This document shows positions 1,302 through 14,898 of a DNA stretch of 64,000 nt, piece by piece. The stretch is from contig CAWIOS010000015.1 in assembly GCA_963837815.1 (NCBI GenBank), forward strand, positions 258,774-322,773, read 5' to 3'. This DNA is from Ignavibacteriota bacterium (GTDB lineage Bacteria; Bacteroidota; Ignavibacteria; UBA10030; UBA6906). A program made the position numbers and the translations under genes. Position 1 is the first letter of the stretch. Every line of letters begins with the position of its first letter. The notes below the pieces were generated by a model. That model had not been told where the DNA came from and ran no database searches. It worked only from the letters and a program-made list of their open reading frames with translations.

Positions 1302-2042
1302 TCAGGAAGCGGCGCCGCTGTGACCGGCGATATGCTGCATGTACAGCGCCTCCAGGTCCTCCCCCGCGAGCTCCCGTGAGGGACGCTGCATCACGAGGCG
1401 TCCCCTGTTCATGATGCCGACGACGTCGGCCACCTCTTTTGCGCGAAATATGTCGTGCGTCGACATCAGTATCGCCTTTCCTTCGTCGCGGAGCGATGTC
1501 AGGAGCCCTATGAACTCGAATCCTGCCTGCGGATCGAGGCCCGACGTGGGCTCGTCGAGGAGGATGGCCGGGGCGTTCTTCATGATGGCGATCGCGATGC
1601 CGCACTTCTGCCGCATCCCCTTGGAAAACCCTCTCAGTTTCTTCCCGTGGGCTTCTTCCTGCAGGCCGACGCGCAGCAGTGCGTTTGTGCATGAGCTCCG
1701 GGACGGGGCCGGGCGTCCGCTCAGCCGCGTGAAGTAGTCAATGTTCTGCAGCGCGGTGAAATTGGGGTAGAGCATCACGTTCTCGGACACGAAGCCCACT
1801 TTCTCCTTCGCCTTCAGCGGGTCCCTGTGTGTCACGATCCCGTCGATCCGCGCCTCCCCCTCCGTGGGGTCGATGAAATTCAGGAACAGGTTAATCGTCG
1901 TCGTTTTTCCCGCCCCGTTCCCCCCCAGCATTGCGTACACTTCCCCCTCCCGCACGGCGAACCCAACGTGATCGAGCGCCAGCACCCCGTCTTCATACCG
2001 CTTCGTGAGCCCGTCCGCTTCCAGCATCGGCTTTCCGGCCAT
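1302..2042 (-). CDS. ABC transporter ATP-binding protein
   Basis: It carries Walker A GGNGAGKTTT, the ABC signature FSKGMRQK, and Walker B ILLDEPTSGLD. Its start lies 4 nt after the upstream gene's stop. Confidence 0.9.
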   Translation of the reverse strand: MAGKPMLEADGLTKRYEDGVLALDHVGFAVREGEVYAMLGGNGAGKTTTINLFLNFIDPTEGEARIDGIVTHRDPLKAKEKVGFVSENVMLYPNFTALQNIDYFTRLSGRPAPSRSSCTNALLRVGLQEEAHGKKLRGFSKGMRQKCGIAIAIMKNAPAILLDEPTSGLDPQAGFEFIGLLTSLRDEGKAILMSTHDIFRAKEVADVVGIMNRGRLVMQRPSRELAGEDLEALYMQHIAGHSGAAS

Positions 2043-2045
2043 GTG

Positions 2046-3548
2046 TCACCTCCTTGTGAGTTTGATTCCGAAAACGACAATTCCTCCGACGAGACCGACG
2101 ATGAGAAGTATGAGAAGAACGGTCCCCGTCACGTTCGCCCCCTGTGCGATCTCCACGGTGGCCGTCTTGTCCTCCGCGTTCACGGGATGGTTATCCGAGA
2201 GCGCGCTCGACCGGAGCCGTATCTCGTAGCGCCCGACCGAGACATCGTGCGGCGGTGTGAATGTGAGTTCCACGCGCCGTTCTTCCCCGATTCCGAGCGA
2301 CGGAACGACCGCGGGCTGAACGTCTTTTGTCCAGTTGAGCGGGGGATCGATCTTCACTTCGATGTTATCGAGTCGACGCGTCCCTTCGTTGACGACGTCC
2401 ACGTTCATCTGCACCGTCCCCTCCGGCTTTATGGAATAGAAAAGCTGGGGCGCGCGCACGAGGAGCTTCCCTTCGCCCCGGGGAATCAGCTCGAGTTTCA
2501 CGAATCCCACGCGGAGGTTCTCGATCTCCGCCTGCGTCCACGTGCGCGATTTCATGTCCCCGGCGGAGTTTGCAAGGTCATGGGGAACCACGACGACGAA
2601 GAAAGGAACCGGCCTGTCCATCGGCACCTCATCCGTGGGCCGGTCGGGGAGAGAGACCTCGAGCGCAGCCTTTCGGGTGTTCGTCGTCTCCGTGAACTTG
2701 AACTGGCTCAGCCTGGCCCGCCCGGAGGGATCCTTGAAGAACCTGTCGATCTGAGGCGGGAGGTTCAGCACCTCGAGGCTGAACGTAGTGCTGACGCCGC
2801 TGAAGAGCTCGAGCGTAAGGTCAAACGTCGCGGATTTTCCGAGCTCGACCTCCTGGGAAAACTGCTCGGATTGTACTGCCACCTTGTTCACGGAGGCGTC
2901 TTTCTGGAGAAAGATCTTCATCGAGCGGGAGGAGCCGCTCCCGTATATCATGTTCACGGTGACTACATCGAGGTCCTCCAGCAGCGCGAAGTCGAGAACC
3001 GCCGGCTCGCCGTACCTGAGCTGCGCGATTTTGGCTTCGTACGGCTGGCTGATGATCGCCCCGTCGTGGTTGGTGATGGAAATGTACACGTCGTTGACGA
3101 CATCAGGCTGGAGCGAGCGGAAGAGTTTGTCGTCGATGTTCAGAAGCTTCTGGAATTCCGCCGTCTCCCCCGAGGTGTTGGCGACGGTGAGCCGGACGTG
3201 CTTCGTGCCGTCGTGGTGCTGGTATTTCACCGCGTGCGCCACGGAGACGAACTGTTGCTCAAAGAGAACTGCAAGAAGCGACTGCTGGTAGTTCACCTCC
3301 GCATCGGCCATGATGTTGTGATAGTGGTCCAGGTCGGCCTGGGAGATCAGCGTCTTCTTGAAAAGCTCCTCCTGCCTCTCGTAGTCGCGCCGGGCGGTCT
3401 CGTACGCCTCCTTCGCCCGTTTCAGCCCCAGCACCCTGTACTTGTCGTCGCGCTGGTTATAGTTCACCTGCGCCCGGGTCGGCACGACAGCACCTCCGGA
3501 AAGTATCGCCGCAAGAATGCAGAGGAAAAATATCGGTCGGATTGTCAT
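2046..3548 (-). CDS. ABC-transporter-associated secreted/membrane-anchored protein. It has an N-terminal signal peptide, a HlyD-like coiled coil, beta-rich repeat (NEW3/CARDB-like) domains, and a C-terminal TM anchor.
   Basis: The ORF is 2046..3611. The likely true start is the internal Met (MTIRPIFFLCILAAILSGGAVVPTRAQ), which gives a signal peptide. The N-terminus is a coiled coil (KRAKEAYETARRDYERQEELFKK), and the C-terminus is hydrophobic (VTGTVLLILLIVGLVGGIVVFGI). It is the first gene of an operon with the ABC ATPase and permease. Confidence 0.55.
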   Translation of the reverse strand: MTIRPIFFLCILAAILSGGAVVPTRAQVNYNQRDDKYRVLGLKRAKEAYETARRDYERQEELFKKTLISQADLDHYHNIMADAEVNYQQSLLAVLFEQQFVSVAHAVKYQHHDGTKHVRLTVANTSGETAEFQKLLNIDDKLFRSLQPDVVNDVYISITNHDGAIISQPYEAKIAQLRYGEPAVLDFALLEDLDVVTVNMIYGSGSSRSMKIFLQKDASVNKVAVQSEQFSQEVELGKSATFDLTLELFSGVSTTFSLEVLNLPPQIDRFFKDPSGRARLSQFKFTETTNTRKAALEVSLPDRPTDEVPMDRPVPFFVVVVPHDLANSAGDMKSRTWTQAEIENLRVGFVKLELIPRGEGKLLVRAPQLFYSIKPEGTVQMNVDVVNEGTRRLDNIEVKIDPPLNWTKDVQPAVVPSLGIGEERRVELTFTPPHDVSVGRYEIRLRSSALSDNHPVNAEDKTATVEIAQGANVTGTVLLILLIVGLVGGIVVFGIKLTRR

Positions 3549-10178: not shown

Positions 10179-10676
10179 TTATTTGTCCCCCTCCTCGATC
10201 GGCTCGAATGACGCCATCCCTTTGTCCTCGGGATGCTTTCCCGTTATCCTCTCGTACGCAAGCCACGTGCACACGTATTTGACTTGCGGGTCCGACGTGA
10301 ACGTCGCCGTCCTTTCGATTGCGAATGCCCCCCTCTCGCTGCCGATCTGGTCAAGGGCAAGAGCCGCGAGTATCCGGACAGGGCCCTCCTCCTGTTCGTT
10401 CTTGAGTATTGCCATGAGGGGAATGACGCACGACGAATACGACTCCTCGGGCCGGATCCTGTTCAGGTCGCGGACGAGCTGTGCGGCATCCGCCTGCATG
10501 CCGGGGATTCCGCTCTCCAGCGCGGTCACGATGTTCGGCTCTATGAGGTCAACCCTGACCTTCGGAAACGACTCGATGTAGCTCTCGCTCTCCCCCGCGA
10601 AGGCGGGAGCCGTGCAAAGCACTCCGCCGGCCACAAGGTAGAATGCCGCGACAAAATTGTGTTTGTTACACTTCAT
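10179..10676 (-). CDS. Small secreted HEAT-repeat protein
   Basis: It has a signal peptide (MKCNKHNFVAAFYLVAGGVLCTAPAFA) followed by HEAT-like repeats (...VRILAALALDQIG...). Confidence 0.5.
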   Translation of the reverse strand: MKCNKHNFVAAFYLVAGGVLCTAPAFAGESESYIESFPKVRVDLIEPNIVTALESGIPGMQADAAQLVRDLNRIRPEESYSSCVIPLMAILKNEQEEGPVRILAALALDQIGSERGAFAIERTATFTSDPQVKYVCTWLAYERITGKHPEDKGMASFEPIEEGDK

Positions 10677-10943
10677 GACTCCCTCCCGGGTGATGTAAAT
10701 TGTGTATCGGGGCTTCACATCATGGTACGCAGGTGGTAAGGCGGGGTTACAGGGGTACACAACGGCCTGTGTTCTTCGTCAACAGGGAATGTCCGTTCCC
10801 GGCGCGAATTTCAGACGAGTTCCGCAGCCGCGGGGCGAAGGGGGAGAAATGGCCCAATCGTATCAACAGGAGTCGTTTCGTCTGAACAAAATCGCCCGCG
10901 CGACGCCTGGATTACACGCCGGATAGCAGGTTTCTCAACAACA

Positions 10944-11984
10944 TCATTCTTCGTCAATGACCCATGTATCCAGCAGATTCTCGGGAAGTCCGGCGATGAA
11001 CCGGGAAGGTTTGGAGAGGACGAGCCCCGACTCGCGGTCGTAGATGTTGATAGGATACGTGATGAAGAGATTCTGCTGCGCCCTCGTGCACGCCACGTAC
11101 ATCAGCCGTCTCTCCTCCTCCATCGAATCCTCGCTCATCGCCGCGCGGCTTGCAGGGAATCGTCCCTCGAGCGCGTATATGACAAACACCGTGTGCCATT
11201 CGAGCCCCTTCGCGCTGTGGATTGTCGAAAGCACGAGCTTTTCGTCGTCTGTCCCCGGGGCCGTAATGTCGGTGACGCTCTCCGTGGCGGGCTCAAGCGC
11301 CAGGTCGGTCAGGAGCGTCCCCAGCGACCGGTACCGTTCGGTGATCTGCTGGAACATCTCGAGATCCTTCCGCCGCTTGTTGTAATCATCGTAGCGGCGT
11401 TTGAACACCGGCTCGTAGTAATTCAGGAGCATCTGCACCTTGTCGGCCGGAGCAATGTGCGCCGGGCTCGCGTCTTTGAGTATGCCGAACAGGTCGCTCA
11501 CACGGTCCGGGTACCCGGCGAATCCTGTCCAGAACGCCGGGAGTGACCGGGAAGTATCGCCCCCTCCTCCGGATGTTGTCGCACGGCGCGCGAGCACGTC
11601 TTCGATCACTTTCTCCGCCGTCCGCGGGCCCACACCTTCCACGAGGAGAAGTATCCGGTTCCACGCCACCGCATCGCGGGGATTCTCAAGGACGCGGAGG
11701 TACGCCACCATGTCCTTGATATGCGCGGTCTCGATGAATTTGAACCCGCCGAATTTGACAAATGGGACGTTTGCCTTGTTCAGTTCAATTTCGAGATCAA
11801 ACGAAAGGTATCCTGAGCGGAAGAGGACGGCGATCGTGTTGAGGAGGATTCCCTGCTCCCGGAGCTCGAGAACCTTTTGCACGACGAACTTGGACTGGAA
11901 GTTTTCGCTTTCCGCCACCACAATCGTCGGCAGCTCCCCGCCGGGCTTATGCGTGAAGAGCTCTTTCTGGAATTTGTGTCTCAT
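10944..11984 (-). CDS. UvrD/PcrA-family helicase, C-terminal half (domains 2A/2B, motifs IVa-VI)
   Basis: Motif V is TIHSAKGLEWHTVFV and motif VI is LMYVACTRAQQNLFITY. Its N-terminus, MRHKFQKELFTHKPGGELPTIVV, continues exactly where the upstream half ends (compare E. coli UvrD ...GRLGKKLWTDGADGEPISLY). Confidence 0.85.
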   Translation of the reverse strand: MRHKFQKELFTHKPGGELPTIVVAESENFQSKFVVQKVLELREQGILLNTIAVLFRSGYLSFDLEIELNKANVPFVKFGGFKFIETAHIKDMVAYLRVLENPRDAVAWNRILLLVEGVGPRTAEKVIEDVLARRATTSGGGGDTSRSLPAFWTGFAGYPDRVSDLFGILKDASPAHIAPADKVQMLLNYYEPVFKRRYDDYNKRRKDLEMFQQITERYRSLGTLLTDLALEPATESVTDITAPGTDDEKLVLSTIHSAKGLEWHTVFVIYALEGRFPASRAAMSEDSMEEERRLMYVACTRAQQNLFITYPINIYDRESGLVLSKPSRFIAGLPENLLDTWVIDEE

Positions 11985-12919
11985 GAGACTGCTCCCGATA
12001 TCGCCCGGATGTAGTCAGGTGTTGTTCCGCAGCACCCCCCGATGAACGATGCCCCGGCGTCTACCCATTGACTTGCAAGCCCTGCGTACTGTTGAGGGCT
12101 GACATCCCTTCTGAGGCCCGCCCCCTGTTCCTCGCCGGTACGTCCGACGTTCGCATAGACGCCGACGTGCAGTTTTCCGCCGGCATGAAACTCATCGAGC
12201 GCAGACAGCATCGCGGTCAGCGGACGGCCGATCTCGTCTGCGGACACGCAGTTGATTGACAGCGCCGCAGGTGAAAGAGCCGCGACCTGTCGTACCGCTT
12301 CTGCAATCGGCTCGCCGCCGAACAGCGGGCCATCCGGCATGCAGAGAAAACTGACGACGTACTCCAACCCGGTTTCACGCGCGGCACGTGCGGCCGCAAG
12401 TGCCTCCCGTATCGTCCCCATCGTCTCGAGAAGAAGAAAATCAACTCCTGCATCTTTGAGACGCGCGGCCTGCTCACGATGTTCGTCTCGCAGTGCCGGG
12501 TCCGGGGGGACCAATTCCGCATGATAGCAATCCTCGAGCGGCGCGATGGAGCCTGCAAGAATCACCCGCCGGTCAGGAAACGACGTGATCGATTCCCGCG
12601 CAATCGTCACCGCGAGCGCCGTAAGCTCCGCCGATCGGTCGGGGAGCCCCGCCCCCCGGAATGTTCTTCGCGTCGTCCTGAACGTATTGCTCGTGATGAT
12701 ATCCGCCCCTGCCCTTATGTAGTCGTCGTGTATCTGCCGAACGGTTCCCGGCGAGGCAACGAGCGCGTTGGCAGACCAGAGCGGGAGGGCCGTCGCGACT
12801 CCCCGCCGCTCCAGCTCCGTCCCCATCGCCCCGTCGAGTATCGCCGGCTTCCGCTCTGCGAGGAGGCGTGCAAGCGGTCCCGTTCCGGTTTCACTCCCGT
12901 GCGCGGCGGAGGATTTCAT
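11981..12919 (-). CDS. Homocysteine S-methyltransferase family protein (MmuM/BHMT-like, Pfam S-methyl_trans)
   Basis: It has the LDGAMGTELERRG motif and the Zn-binding GGCCGTTPDYI motif. It is in a different reading frame from the two helicase halves and overlaps both junctions (by 29 nt and 4 nt). Confidence 0.8.
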   Translation of the reverse strand: MKSSAAHGSETGTGPLARLLAERKPAILDGAMGTELERRGVATALPLWSANALVASPGTVRQIHDDYIRAGADIITSNTFRTTRRTFRGAGLPDRSAELTALAVTIARESITSFPDRRVILAGSIAPLEDCYHAELVPPDPALRDEHREQAARLKDAGVDFLLLETMGTIREALAAARAARETGLEYVVSFLCMPDGPLFGGEPIAEAVRQVAALSPAALSINCVSADEIGRPLTAMLSALDEFHAGGKLHVGVYANVGRTGEEQGAGLRRDVSPQQYAGLASQWVDAGASFIGGCCGTTPDYIRAISGAVS

Positions 12920-13880
12920 TTGTAAGGTTCAGTATCGGCTGGGTGCTCCGGTAATTCTCCTCGAGCTTGACAAGCGTGCATCCCGGAAATGCTTCCGGGA
13001 AGTCGAGTATGTTCCGGATGGTCGCCCCGCGGAATGAATAGATCGACTGCGCGTCGTCCCCCACGACCATGATATTCCCGTGGGAGGAGGCGAGGAGCGA
13101 CACAATCTCCGCCTGTATCTTGTTCGTGTCCTGGTACTCGTCCACCATGATGTAGCGGAACCGGTCCGAAATCGTCCGCCGCACCCTGTCGTTGTCGCGC
13201 AGGAGTTTCCTGAGGTAAATCAGAAGGTCGTCATAGTCCATCATGTTATGACCGGCCTTGTATTGTTCGAATGCAGACTGGAGCTTCAGGATTTCATCCA
13301 GGTAGTCCTCATAATGCGGGTAGTCCTCTTTCAGTATGTCCTTGACCGGTGTCAGCGTGTTCACCGCGCGCGAGAAAATGGTGTACAGCGTCTGCTTGCG
13401 CGGGAACCGCTTCTCTTTAGTGTCGTACTTGTGCTGGGTGCGGAGGAGATTGACGACGTCCTCGGCGTCCCCCTGGTCGAGTATCGAGAACGACGAATCG
13501 AAATCGAGGAGCGGCGCGTACTGGCGGAGGATGAGGTTGGCGAACGAGTGAAACGTCCCGCCGGCGACCTTCTCGCAACGGGCGTCGAGGAGCATGGAAG
13601 CGCGGCGAAGCATCTCCTGCGCCGCGCGCCGGGTGAACGTCAGGAGGAGGATCGACTCGGGCTTCACGCCGAGCTCCACGAGATACGCGACCCGGTACGT
13701 GATCGTGCGCGTCTTCCCCGTGCCGGCCCCGGCGATGATAAGGTGCGGCCCGTTCACCGAGGAGACCGCCTGGTACTGCGCCGGGTTGAGCTGGTTCTTG
13801 TAGTCGATCCGGAAATGCCGCGGGGGCTCCGGTTCCGGAGCGTCCTTGAAGAGAGATTTCTTGAGCGTGTATTTCTTCAT
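12891..13880 (-). CDS. UvrD/PcrA-family helicase, N-terminal half (motifs I-IV)
   Basis: Motif I is AGAGTGKTRT, motif II is MVDEYQDTN, motif III is VVGDDAQSIYSFRGA, and motif IV is ENYRSTQPIL. It ends with ...NEILRRARE. Confidence 0.85.
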   Translation of the reverse strand: MKKYTLKKSLFKDAPEPEPPRHFRIDYKNQLNPAQYQAVSSVNGPHLIIAGAGTGKTRTITYRVAYLVELGVKPESILLLTFTRRAAQEMLRRASMLLDARCEKVAGGTFHSFANLILRQYAPLLDFDSSFSILDQGDAEDVVNLLRTQHKYDTKEKRFPRKQTLYTIFSRAVNTLTPVKDILKEDYPHYEDYLDEILKLQSAFEQYKAGHNMMDYDDLLIYLRKLLRDNDRVRRTISDRFRYIMVDEYQDTNKIQAEIVSLLASSHGNIMVVGDDAQSIYSFRGATIRNILDFPEAFPGCTLVKLEENYRSTQPILNLTNEILRRARE

Positions 13881-13901: not shown

Positions 13902-14898
13902 TTACAGCGTCTCGACGGGGTACTTGTCGATCAGGTCAAGTATTGCCTCGATCGTCTTCGGTGAATTTCCCTCTGCCCTGTTGTTCACGTACGCGTAGAG
14001 CTGGCGCCCTTCGGCGACGCACCGCCGGACTGTCTCCGCAAGCCCCTGGCGGAGTTCGGGGTTTTCCTCTTTGATGGATTCGTACGGCTGGAAGAGATCC
14101 ACGGCCTCCTGATACGTTCTCCCGGGTTTCAGCAGCGCCCGCGCCACCGAGAATCTTGCGCTCAAGACGCCCGAGAGCTGAATCTGCTCCATGATCGGCG
14201 GCATCTTCGTCCAGCTGTTCAGGACGTGTGCGGCGCCCCTGTCGGCAAGCATCGTAAGGTAGTCGCCCGTCAGGTACTCCCTGTTCCGTATCTCGACCGC
14301 GTACGAGAACTCCTTCGGGAGGCGGGCGAGGAAGTCGTCCATAAGCCTGAGAAACTTTTCGTACGTCACCCCCGAGTTCGGATAGAACGCCGAGAATTCG
14401 AATATGATCACCCCGCGCTTTTTCCGCAGAGACTCAACCGGGCGGAGAAACGCGTCTTCGAAGAGCTCGAGATTCAGGAAATCCGGGTTCTCCCGACCGG
14501 CATTCGCTCCGTGACGTGGCAGGTTCGGATAGCGCCTGACGGTGATACGGTCGGTCACCTTCAGCGACAGCCTGAAATCATCCGTGGTGCTGTCATGGAT
14601 GATCTGCATCTGGTGCGCGTCCGGGAAATCATAAAGCGCGAAATCGGCGCACACGGTCGGGAAAAGACTGGAGTACTCGGTAATACATTCCCTCGCAAAC
14701 GCCTTCTTCGACGGGTACGCCCTGGTGTAGACAATCCCCTGCCACCCCGGGTACTTCCACGACGAAGACCCGAAATAGATCCCCCTGCTCGCCCAGCGGT
14801 GAAGCCGTTCGCGGTTGCGCTCGACGTACGGGGACTCCGGCGCAGTGACGTCGTCGAAGAGCGGGAGCGTATCCGGAGACTGTTTCTTCTTCGCCATG
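13902..14898 (-). CDS. DUF72 (YecE/UPF0759) family protein
   Basis: The start is MAKKKQSP. It has the family motifs ...IYFGSSSWKYPGWQGIVY... and C-terminal ...LYAYVNNRAEGN. Confidence 0.75.

Follow-up and report, generated by a model that had tools for sequence, protein, structure and literature searches.

The window analysed here is a 64,000-nt stretch of an Ignavibacteriota bacterium genome (assembly GCA_963837815.1, contig CAWIOS010000015.1, positions 258,774 to 322,773). It carries a UvrD/PcrA-like superfamily 1A (SF1A) helicase gene in two pieces, separated by a gene for a homocysteine (Hcy) S-methyltransferase family protein (MT). All three open reading frames (ORFs) lie on the minus strand. 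The N-terminal piece (N-half, 329 aa) was located at 12891..13880 by ORF reading and is supported by a PF00580 match, motif alignment and the ratio of non-synonymous to synonymous substitution (dN/dS). The guest gene MT (312 aa) occupies 11981..12919 (ORF, PF02574), and the C-terminal piece (C-half, 346 aa) 10944..11984 (ORF, PF13361 and PF13538). Both helicase ORFs share a frame (13880 and 11984 are both 2 mod 3) and MT is read in another. The insert separating them is exactly 918 nt and encodes only MT. ORF reading confirmed the coordinates, lengths and shared helicase frame of the initial annotation and, together with Pfam, its description of two independently translatable helicase pieces with an intact MT gene between them.

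Anatomy of the split helicase and its guest gene

Both junctions are overlaps, and both were found in the raw sequence as first described. The 3′ end of the N-half reads AAT GAA ATC CTC CGC CGC GCA CGG GAG TGA (NEILRRARE-TGA). The ATG start of MT sits within the helicase N-E codons AAT-GAA (aATGAAatc), giving a 29-nt dual-coding overlap at 12891..12919 (minus strand), and the first ~9 MT codons (MKSSAAHGS) are an out-of-frame reading of the codons for NEILRRARE. At the other end, the MT stop and the C-half start share a 4-nt ATGA overlap at 11981..11984 (minus strand). The C-half protein begins MRHKFQKELFTHKPGG, i.e. M-R-H-KFQKELF.

The N-half matched the full PF00580 profile (6.9e-78, positions 1-271). 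The C-half matched PF13361 (6.2e-48) and also PF13538; the first 23 PF13361 positions fall on the N-half. The N-half comprises domains 1A and 1B with motifs Q, I, Ia, II and III, and continues through the motif IV strand (EENYRS) to the first helix of domain 2A; what is left of domain 2A belongs to the C-half, along with domain 2B and motifs V and VI. Motif sequences of the N-half (AGAGTGKT, DEYQDTN, GDDAQSIYSFRGA and EENYRS) and of the C-half (STIHSAKGLEW and YVACTRA) were aligned with PcrA and are invariant among orthologues. All SF1A motifs are thereby kept across the two halves.

Every match to a search with the joined halves was a full-length protein of ~663 aa, with 55-70% identity and 100% query coverage. 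The best NCBIfam match was TIGR01073 (PcrA), at 278 and 160 bits for the two halves against a cut-off of 911; an intact orthologue (P0001) scored 468 bits against the same cut-off. Since the halves and the intact orthologue all score far under the NCBIfam equivalog cut-offs for PcrA, UvrD and Rep, the helicase belongs to a UvrD-like paralogue family of its own, found in Ignavibacteria-, Kapabacteria- and Bacteroidota-type organisms. The named relatives are metagenome-assembled genomes of Ignavibacteria, Kapabacteria and "Bacteroidota bacterium".

Intact orthologues are 63-70% identical to the joined halves. The seam was compared with 13 of them, which read ...NEIIARARE-KYTKVLYTRKP... where the window reads ...NEILRRARE|MRH|KFQKELFTHKP.... 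No residues are missing at the junction, as had been claimed, and three (M-R-H) are added relative to the intact proteins. The equivalent point in E. coli UvrD is ...ALIENN|NGRLGKKLW (~N300/N301), which agrees to within a few residues with the placement given initially. PcrA (NEVIEHN--VN-RKPKRIW) and UvrD (ALIENN---NGRLGKKLW) are both gapped and variable here.

The two halves were concatenated and modelled with AlphaFold2 (AF2) from a 93-sequence alignment, giving a predicted local distance difference test score (pLDDT) of 86.7 and a predicted TM-score (pTM) of 0.82; a run with 14 sequences gave a pLDDT of 69. The model of the joined chain has the four-subdomain fold (1A, 1B, 2A and 2B) and was matched by Foldseek to full-length UvrD (D. 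radiodurans and E. coli), PcrA and Rep at TM 0.82-0.87 (4C2T, 2IS1, 3PJR and 1UAA). The junction (residues 329|330) falls between helix 314-325 and strand 349-353, in the locally least confident part of the model (block means of 75-80 versus ~88-94 on either side). By the published limits domain 2A of UvrD starts near residue 281, which places the break inside this RecA-like domain; it is ~20-45 residues in, on a variable surface loop that follows motif IV. Canonical single-chain UvrD, PcrA and Rep (PDB 2IS1, 3PJR, 1UAA, 4C2T) have the same PF00580 and PF13361 domains and all the motifs, but the protein here is made as two polypeptides broken within domain 2A. A stop after ...RRARE and a separate M-R-H start divide the motor core in the window and in >70 related loci.

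MT matched PF02574 at 2.1e-65 over profile positions 2-282 of 283, a full-length Hcy-binding TIM-barrel domain. Against the MmuM equivalog NF007020 it scored 170 bits, under the cut-off of 215. The LDGAMGTEL motif and GGCCGTTP zinc site reported for the intact 312-aa protein are present, and the zinc-ligand cysteines C224, C296 and C297 (the NC ... GGCCG triad) are invariant in 22 MT homologues. The closest homologues are 52-85% identical and one protein (P0121) is 100% identical to the window MT. Exact look-ups of P0121 and of the window's own N-half and MT proteins matched no record. Many of the homologues begin MKSS..., as results when the helicase NEIL codons are read out of frame, and such N-termini were found in ~25 MT protein clusters.

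Conservation of the split and turnover of the gap

Related loci (L numbers) and proteins (P numbers) were compared with the window. All of the relatives are metagenomic, with taxonomy no finer than "Bacteroidota-affiliated". Trees were built by neighbour joining (NJ) on top-hit samples, and dN/dS was estimated by the Nei-Gojobori method between six loci. Metagenome contigs were scanned with an alignment of the C-half, and the loci classed by tblastn and ORF reading.

The order N-half, MT, C-half was found in L001 (GCA_936419445.1), L002/L003, L004, L084/L085, L086/L087 and L091 (a 1.9-Mb contig). In L001, L002, L084 and L086 it is flanked by DUF72 and Yip1 genes upstream and often by a peptidase S9 gene downstream. 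The scan yielded 61 MT-type loci in total, which are monophyletic in the NJ tree of C-halves; intact helicase genes also exist among the relatives. The arrangement is not a one-off event in this genome: it recurs in >60 independent metagenomic or metagenome-assembled loci. A contig scan with the MT alignment gave, among the matches listed, mostly distant stand-alone MTs of other phyla, with L004 informative. Most MTs starting M-x-GPLA... are, by the C-half search, also nested between helicase halves.

The best 120 clusters of C-half matches were all (120/120) stand-alone proteins of 339-395 aa, 76-98% identical, and nearly all begin M-(x)-R-H-K[Y/F]. On clustering at 50%, the whole C-half group forms one cluster, and the next match is an intact 691-aa protein. 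These comparisons show a split that is both ancient and clade-wide, shared by a large group of uncultured Bacteroidota. A distant C-half-only protein (P0457, 335 aa, 39% identity) starts MSQAEDKYEKKLF, at nearly the same position, and may reflect either a separate split in another lineage or an error of gene calling.

dN/dS was 0.04-0.13 for the N-half and 0.03-0.14 for the C-half, both at dS 0.6-1.7, and 0.16-0.26 for MT (dS over the three genes, 0.6-2.4). Within the window's subclade, identity is 87-95% for the halves against 60-70% for MT. Both halves are thus under strong purifying selection long after fission.

At the 5′ junction, 39 loci with both ends visible had a 4-nt overlap (15 loci), a 1-nt overlap (8), a 29-nt overlap (10) or a gap of 0-27 nt (6). 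The 29-nt form is confined to the window's own subclade, most relatives having 4 nt or 1 nt, and is a derived feature of that subclade; its sequence (AATGAAATCCTCCG..) is identical at synonymous sites across the 10 loci. At the 3′ junction (61 loci) the ATGA overlap was seen in 22, other overlaps in 4, a spacer of 1-30 nt in 15 and one of 41-157 nt in 15. The remaining 5/61 have >400 nt and an additional gene between the MT stop and the C-half start.

Genes found between MT and the C-half include PF13366 (PDDEXK_3) members, full-length in L108 and L130 and a partial match in L146. With one weak 23S_rRNA_IVP-like ORF, these small PD-(D/E)XK genes (GxxExxY-type) account for features at L108 316-684, L130 629-1036, L146 3439-3552, L136 1-318 and L106 ~1034-1390. 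Since PD-(D/E)XK (GxxExxY) and 23S IVP families are often seen as small inserted genes, their presence suggests that the slot attracts selfish elements. In L098 MT and the C-half are 1.6 kb apart, with an antisense gene for a GH29 alpha-L-fucosidase (2024-3466, minus strand) between them that must break any coupling of the two there.

MT is absent from L093 and L094, in which the halves are 93-94% identical to those of the window and have dN/dS of 0.02-0.06. Their junction reads ...RRARE-stop, 15-18 nt, ATG-R-H-K-Y. A remnant ORF of 16-17 codons in the MT frame, starting at the ATG inside the helicase codons (MKSSAAHGSKGSDRGV / MKSSAAQESEGAPDA), was found at L093 3583-3600 and L094 3586-3600. 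The two loci nest by different MT-bearing loci (L086 and L095), and two independent deletions of MT were therefore assigned.

Other genes occupy the break site elsewhere. In a sister group, eight loci have an unrelated lipoprotein gene (~265-300 aa) there and the C-half again starts MRHKY. This lipoprotein is conserved, with a signal peptide and a lipobox such as LAGC (L157 2789-3595; also L151, L158, L159, L160, L166, L167 and L170), and gave no match in Pfam. In L155 the occupant is a 190-aa ORF for a membrane protein. In four to six loci the halves are separated by nothing but a non-coding spacer of 100-220 nt, with the N-half ending ...ILKRG..-stop and the C-half starting MYYKELY. No N-half was found upstream of MT and/or the C-half in L102/L172, L146, L132 and L111; in L172 neither the 7 kb upstream nor the 5 kb downstream of MT and the C-half contains one. 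The C-half and the genes downstream of it recur in two more assemblies, where a cut, unannotated ORF stands in place of MT. Intact helicase genes were found in L088, L089 and L153/L154 and as proteins P0001-P0009, and the intact gene of L088 adjoins the same Yip1 neighbour as the split loci. None of the intact proteins has the shared R-H dipeptide.

The NJ tree has short branches at its base, and the loci may descend either from one ancient fission followed by guest turnover (perhaps with re-fusion) or from several fissions at the same loop. The proposal that insertion of MT split the gene stands in that an intact MT does lie between the pieces. MT is, however, one occupant of several and the split persists without it; because other guests, bare spacers, MT-deleted and unlinked states all occur, MT is not demonstrably the creator of the slot. 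The shared frame of the two helicase ORFs, which had been pointed out, is incidental: only 19 of 40 loci have the halves in frame, and even close relatives such as L086 and L095 differ.

Probable operon context and neighbouring features

A DUF72 gene (PF01904) lies at 13902..14897 (minus strand), ending 21 nt short of the N-half start. Ahead of it, at 14956-14934 (minus strand), a strong terminator-like 9-bp GC hairpin with a T-run closes the upstream Yip1-family gene. No terminator-like site was found between this hairpin and the C-half stop (10944). The 21-nt spacing and this lack of terminator-like sites suggest a single transcript of DUF72, N-half, MT and C-half, of which DUF72 is probably the first cistron. 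A weak terminator-like hairpin just past the C-half stop (10891..10904, minus strand; 5-bp stem, consensus match only) may mark the operon end. A scan for sigma-70 promoters found none near the operon, with a consensus that excludes Bacteroidota-type promoters. Shine-Dalgarno (SD) usage was 11/48 genes (23%) against a background of 17%, on crude start calls; an SD-like GGAG is present upstream of the C-half start.

Downstream of the C-half the window has a 193-aa ORF with no Pfam match (10179-10760, minus strand), and a similar-sized unannotated ORF (164-167 aa) was seen at the equivalent position in L001, L002 and L172-L174. One lineage, L086 (7012-8032) and L087 (4251-5271), has a HEPN/nucleotidyltransferase pair (toxin-antitoxin-like) inserted directly downstream of the C-half, and the L172 contig has a ParE/Phd pair. 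The GC content is ~55-65% across the profiled 8-17 kb stretch of the window, and tRNA genes are absent from the whole 64 kb.

A probable two-subunit helicase: interpretation and comparison

We consider it likely that the locus encodes an obligate two-subunit split UvrD/PcrA-like SF1A helicase, and that the gap between the halves is an ordinary intergenic slot, here holding MT. The N-half and C-half would assemble non-covalently into one helicase, with domain 2A rebuilt around the strand and helix of the N-half. The ATP site of SF1A helicases lies between domain 1A (motifs I-III) and domain 2A (motifs IV-VI). Each half would thus supply part of the site and neither would be catalytically competent alone. 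A non-covalent heterodimer is the simplest arrangement because the ATP site is composite and both halves are equally constrained. The overlaps would couple translation of MT and the C-half to that of the upstream cistron, keeping the halves near-stoichiometric.

Several points weigh against this reading. The break is within a RecA-like domain and not between domains, so that 2A needs a strand and a helix from the N-half. Binding of the halves to each other, and their ATPase or helicase activity, are proposed from purifying selection and the composite ATP site. A gene for the N-half elsewhere in the genome could not be confirmed in the unlinked lineages. We infer co-transcription only from spacing and the lack of consensus terminators, and the GGAG upstream of the C-half start counts for little in a genome with little SD usage.

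The unusual layout is the only thing that speaks for an assembly chimera or a decaying pseudogene, and we give this practically no weight. The layout is repeated in dozens of independent JGI, ENA, NCBI and Logan assemblies, all motifs are intact, and dN/dS is well under 1 at near-saturated dS. Mis-assembly and pseudogene decay were both rejected on the comparative loci and dN/dS. Scarcely more credible is recovery of a full-length helicase through stop-codon read-through, ribosomal bypass, splicing of RNA or protein, or excision of DNA. The window halves are in frame and their junction is seamless save for M-R-H, as such recoding would have it, but the frame relation varies among close relatives, TAA, TAG and TGA each occur as the N-half stop, the gap can be as short as 2 nt or as long as 2.5 kb, and MT itself is under purifying selection in its own frame. 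Moreover, no Rfam family reached its gathering score anywhere in the 64-kb window, no Hint domain was detected in the insert or the halves, the halves carry no sequence beyond M-R-H, and the insert, which encodes only MT, has no recombinase or transposase and no direct or inverted repeats at its junctions. The intein, intron, bypass, read-through and excision readings were rejected on these grounds. The initial annotation had already set aside an intein or intron, and the absence of Hint and Rfam matches and the other frame of the insert bear this out.

That insertion of MT was the original fission, with MT still tied to the helicase, e.g. as a third subunit or co-regulated partner, is improbable. 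In its favour, no other gene occupies the slot as often as MT (61 loci), the MT loci with their host halves are monophyletic, coupling is tight at either junction, and MT stays with the C-half when the N-half is unlinked. Against this, MT evolves faster than the halves in both identity and dN/dS, it was lost twice without effect on them, and sister lineages are split with other genes or none. No biochemical link is known between PF02574 enzymes and SF1 helicases, and flanking repeats or insertion scars are absent at the junctions. Somewhat less remote, but still unlikely, is that the halves no longer cooperate and have independent roles, e.g. as an ATP- or single-stranded DNA (ssDNA)-binding N-half and a 2A/2B accessory protein that partners other factors. 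Domain 2B of UvrD, Rep and PcrA is a regulatory, partner-binding module, and in some lineages the N-half is not within 7 kb of MT and the C-half, so that expression can be uncoupled. The halves nevertheless have equally low dN/dS, every catalytic motif is kept (I-IV in the N-half, V and VI in the C-half), the SF1 ATP site draws residues from both 1A and 2A, and the halves are adjacent or in one operon in most loci.

The two-subunit reading has a counterpart in nrdA of Aeromonas phage Aeh1, which is cut by the homing-endonuclease gene mobE; the pieces are translated separately and reassembled into an active enzyme, without RNA or protein splicing, via short tails at the break (Crona et al. 2010, PMC3045599). 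The helicase resembles it in being encoded by two separately translated ORFs with short tails, here a conserved M-x-R-H, and by analogy R-H may play a role comparable to that of the Aeh1 tails. In contrast to Aeh1, the guest here is a metabolic enzyme (PF02574) and not a mobile endonuclease, although small PD-(D/E)XK genes do occur in the gap of some relatives. The split is found in a cellular lineage and not a phage; it is ancient, clade-wide, survives guest loss and forms a slot with several unrelated genes; reassembly is proposed here by analogy. PDB entries 1QHH and 2PJR list PcrA as several chains, which we take to be a proteolytically nicked protein that stays assembled.

In 'fractured genes', split inteins flank an endonuclease gene (Dassa et al. 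2009, PMC2677866). There too a host gene is interrupted by another ORF into two half-genes. Here, however, the last residue of the N-half is a helicase residue, the C-half has just 3 residues ahead of the resumed helicase sequence, and protein trans-splicing is unavailable because there are no intein halves and no Hint domain. Coding sequences are likewise interrupted by foreign DNA in the skin element of B. subtilis sigK and the cyanobacterial nifD and fdxN elements, which encode a recombinase, are bordered by repeats and leave a single ORF once excised; the present insert has MT only and no flanking repeats, and the frame is not conserved. Among the split genes of reduced or archaeal genomes, reverse gyrase of Nanoarchaeum equitans is also a stable fission of a helicase-containing enzyme, with halves that can be unlinked. 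Such genes are split between domains, unlike the present break inside the RecA-like motor domain, where the gap hosts guest genes.

In the literature no report was found of a split UvrD/PcrA-type helicase or of an MT-in-helicase arrangement. Gene fission and "genes in pieces" are already known phenomena, and no new category is needed. The unusual combination is of a break within a RecA-like motor domain, clade-wide occurrence, several mostly non-mobile guests, persistence after guest loss, halves that can be unlinked and, in the window's subclade, overprinting, the first ~9 MT codons being helicase codons in another frame, with both readings conserved. More tentatively, and with some doubt, the site after motif IV may be viewed as a heritable 'nesting slot' that arose by one ancient fission (marked by R-H) or several, has taken in at least 4 unrelated guests (MT, lipoprotein, membrane protein and PD-(D/E)XK), and belongs to an SF1A helicase that is an obligate heterodimer, which would be a motor of a kind not previously described.

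Annotation pipelines would label such halves "partial" or "ATP-binding domain-containing", and quality tools may flag them as frameshifts or pseudogenes. As an unusually well-sampled case of cellular gene fission, with intact, spacer-only, guest-occupied, guest-lost and unlinked states, the family makes the order of events in fission, and possibly in re-fusion, testable. It would be a natural SF1A helicase split in a RecA-like domain and kept by selection in a large clade, which points to a permissive split site for engineering of UvrD, PcrA and Rep, and raises the question of how a composite ATP site assembles from a split SF1A helicase. If the nesting-slot view is true, halves that can be unlinked could allow regulation of the helicase by subunit supply or exchange.

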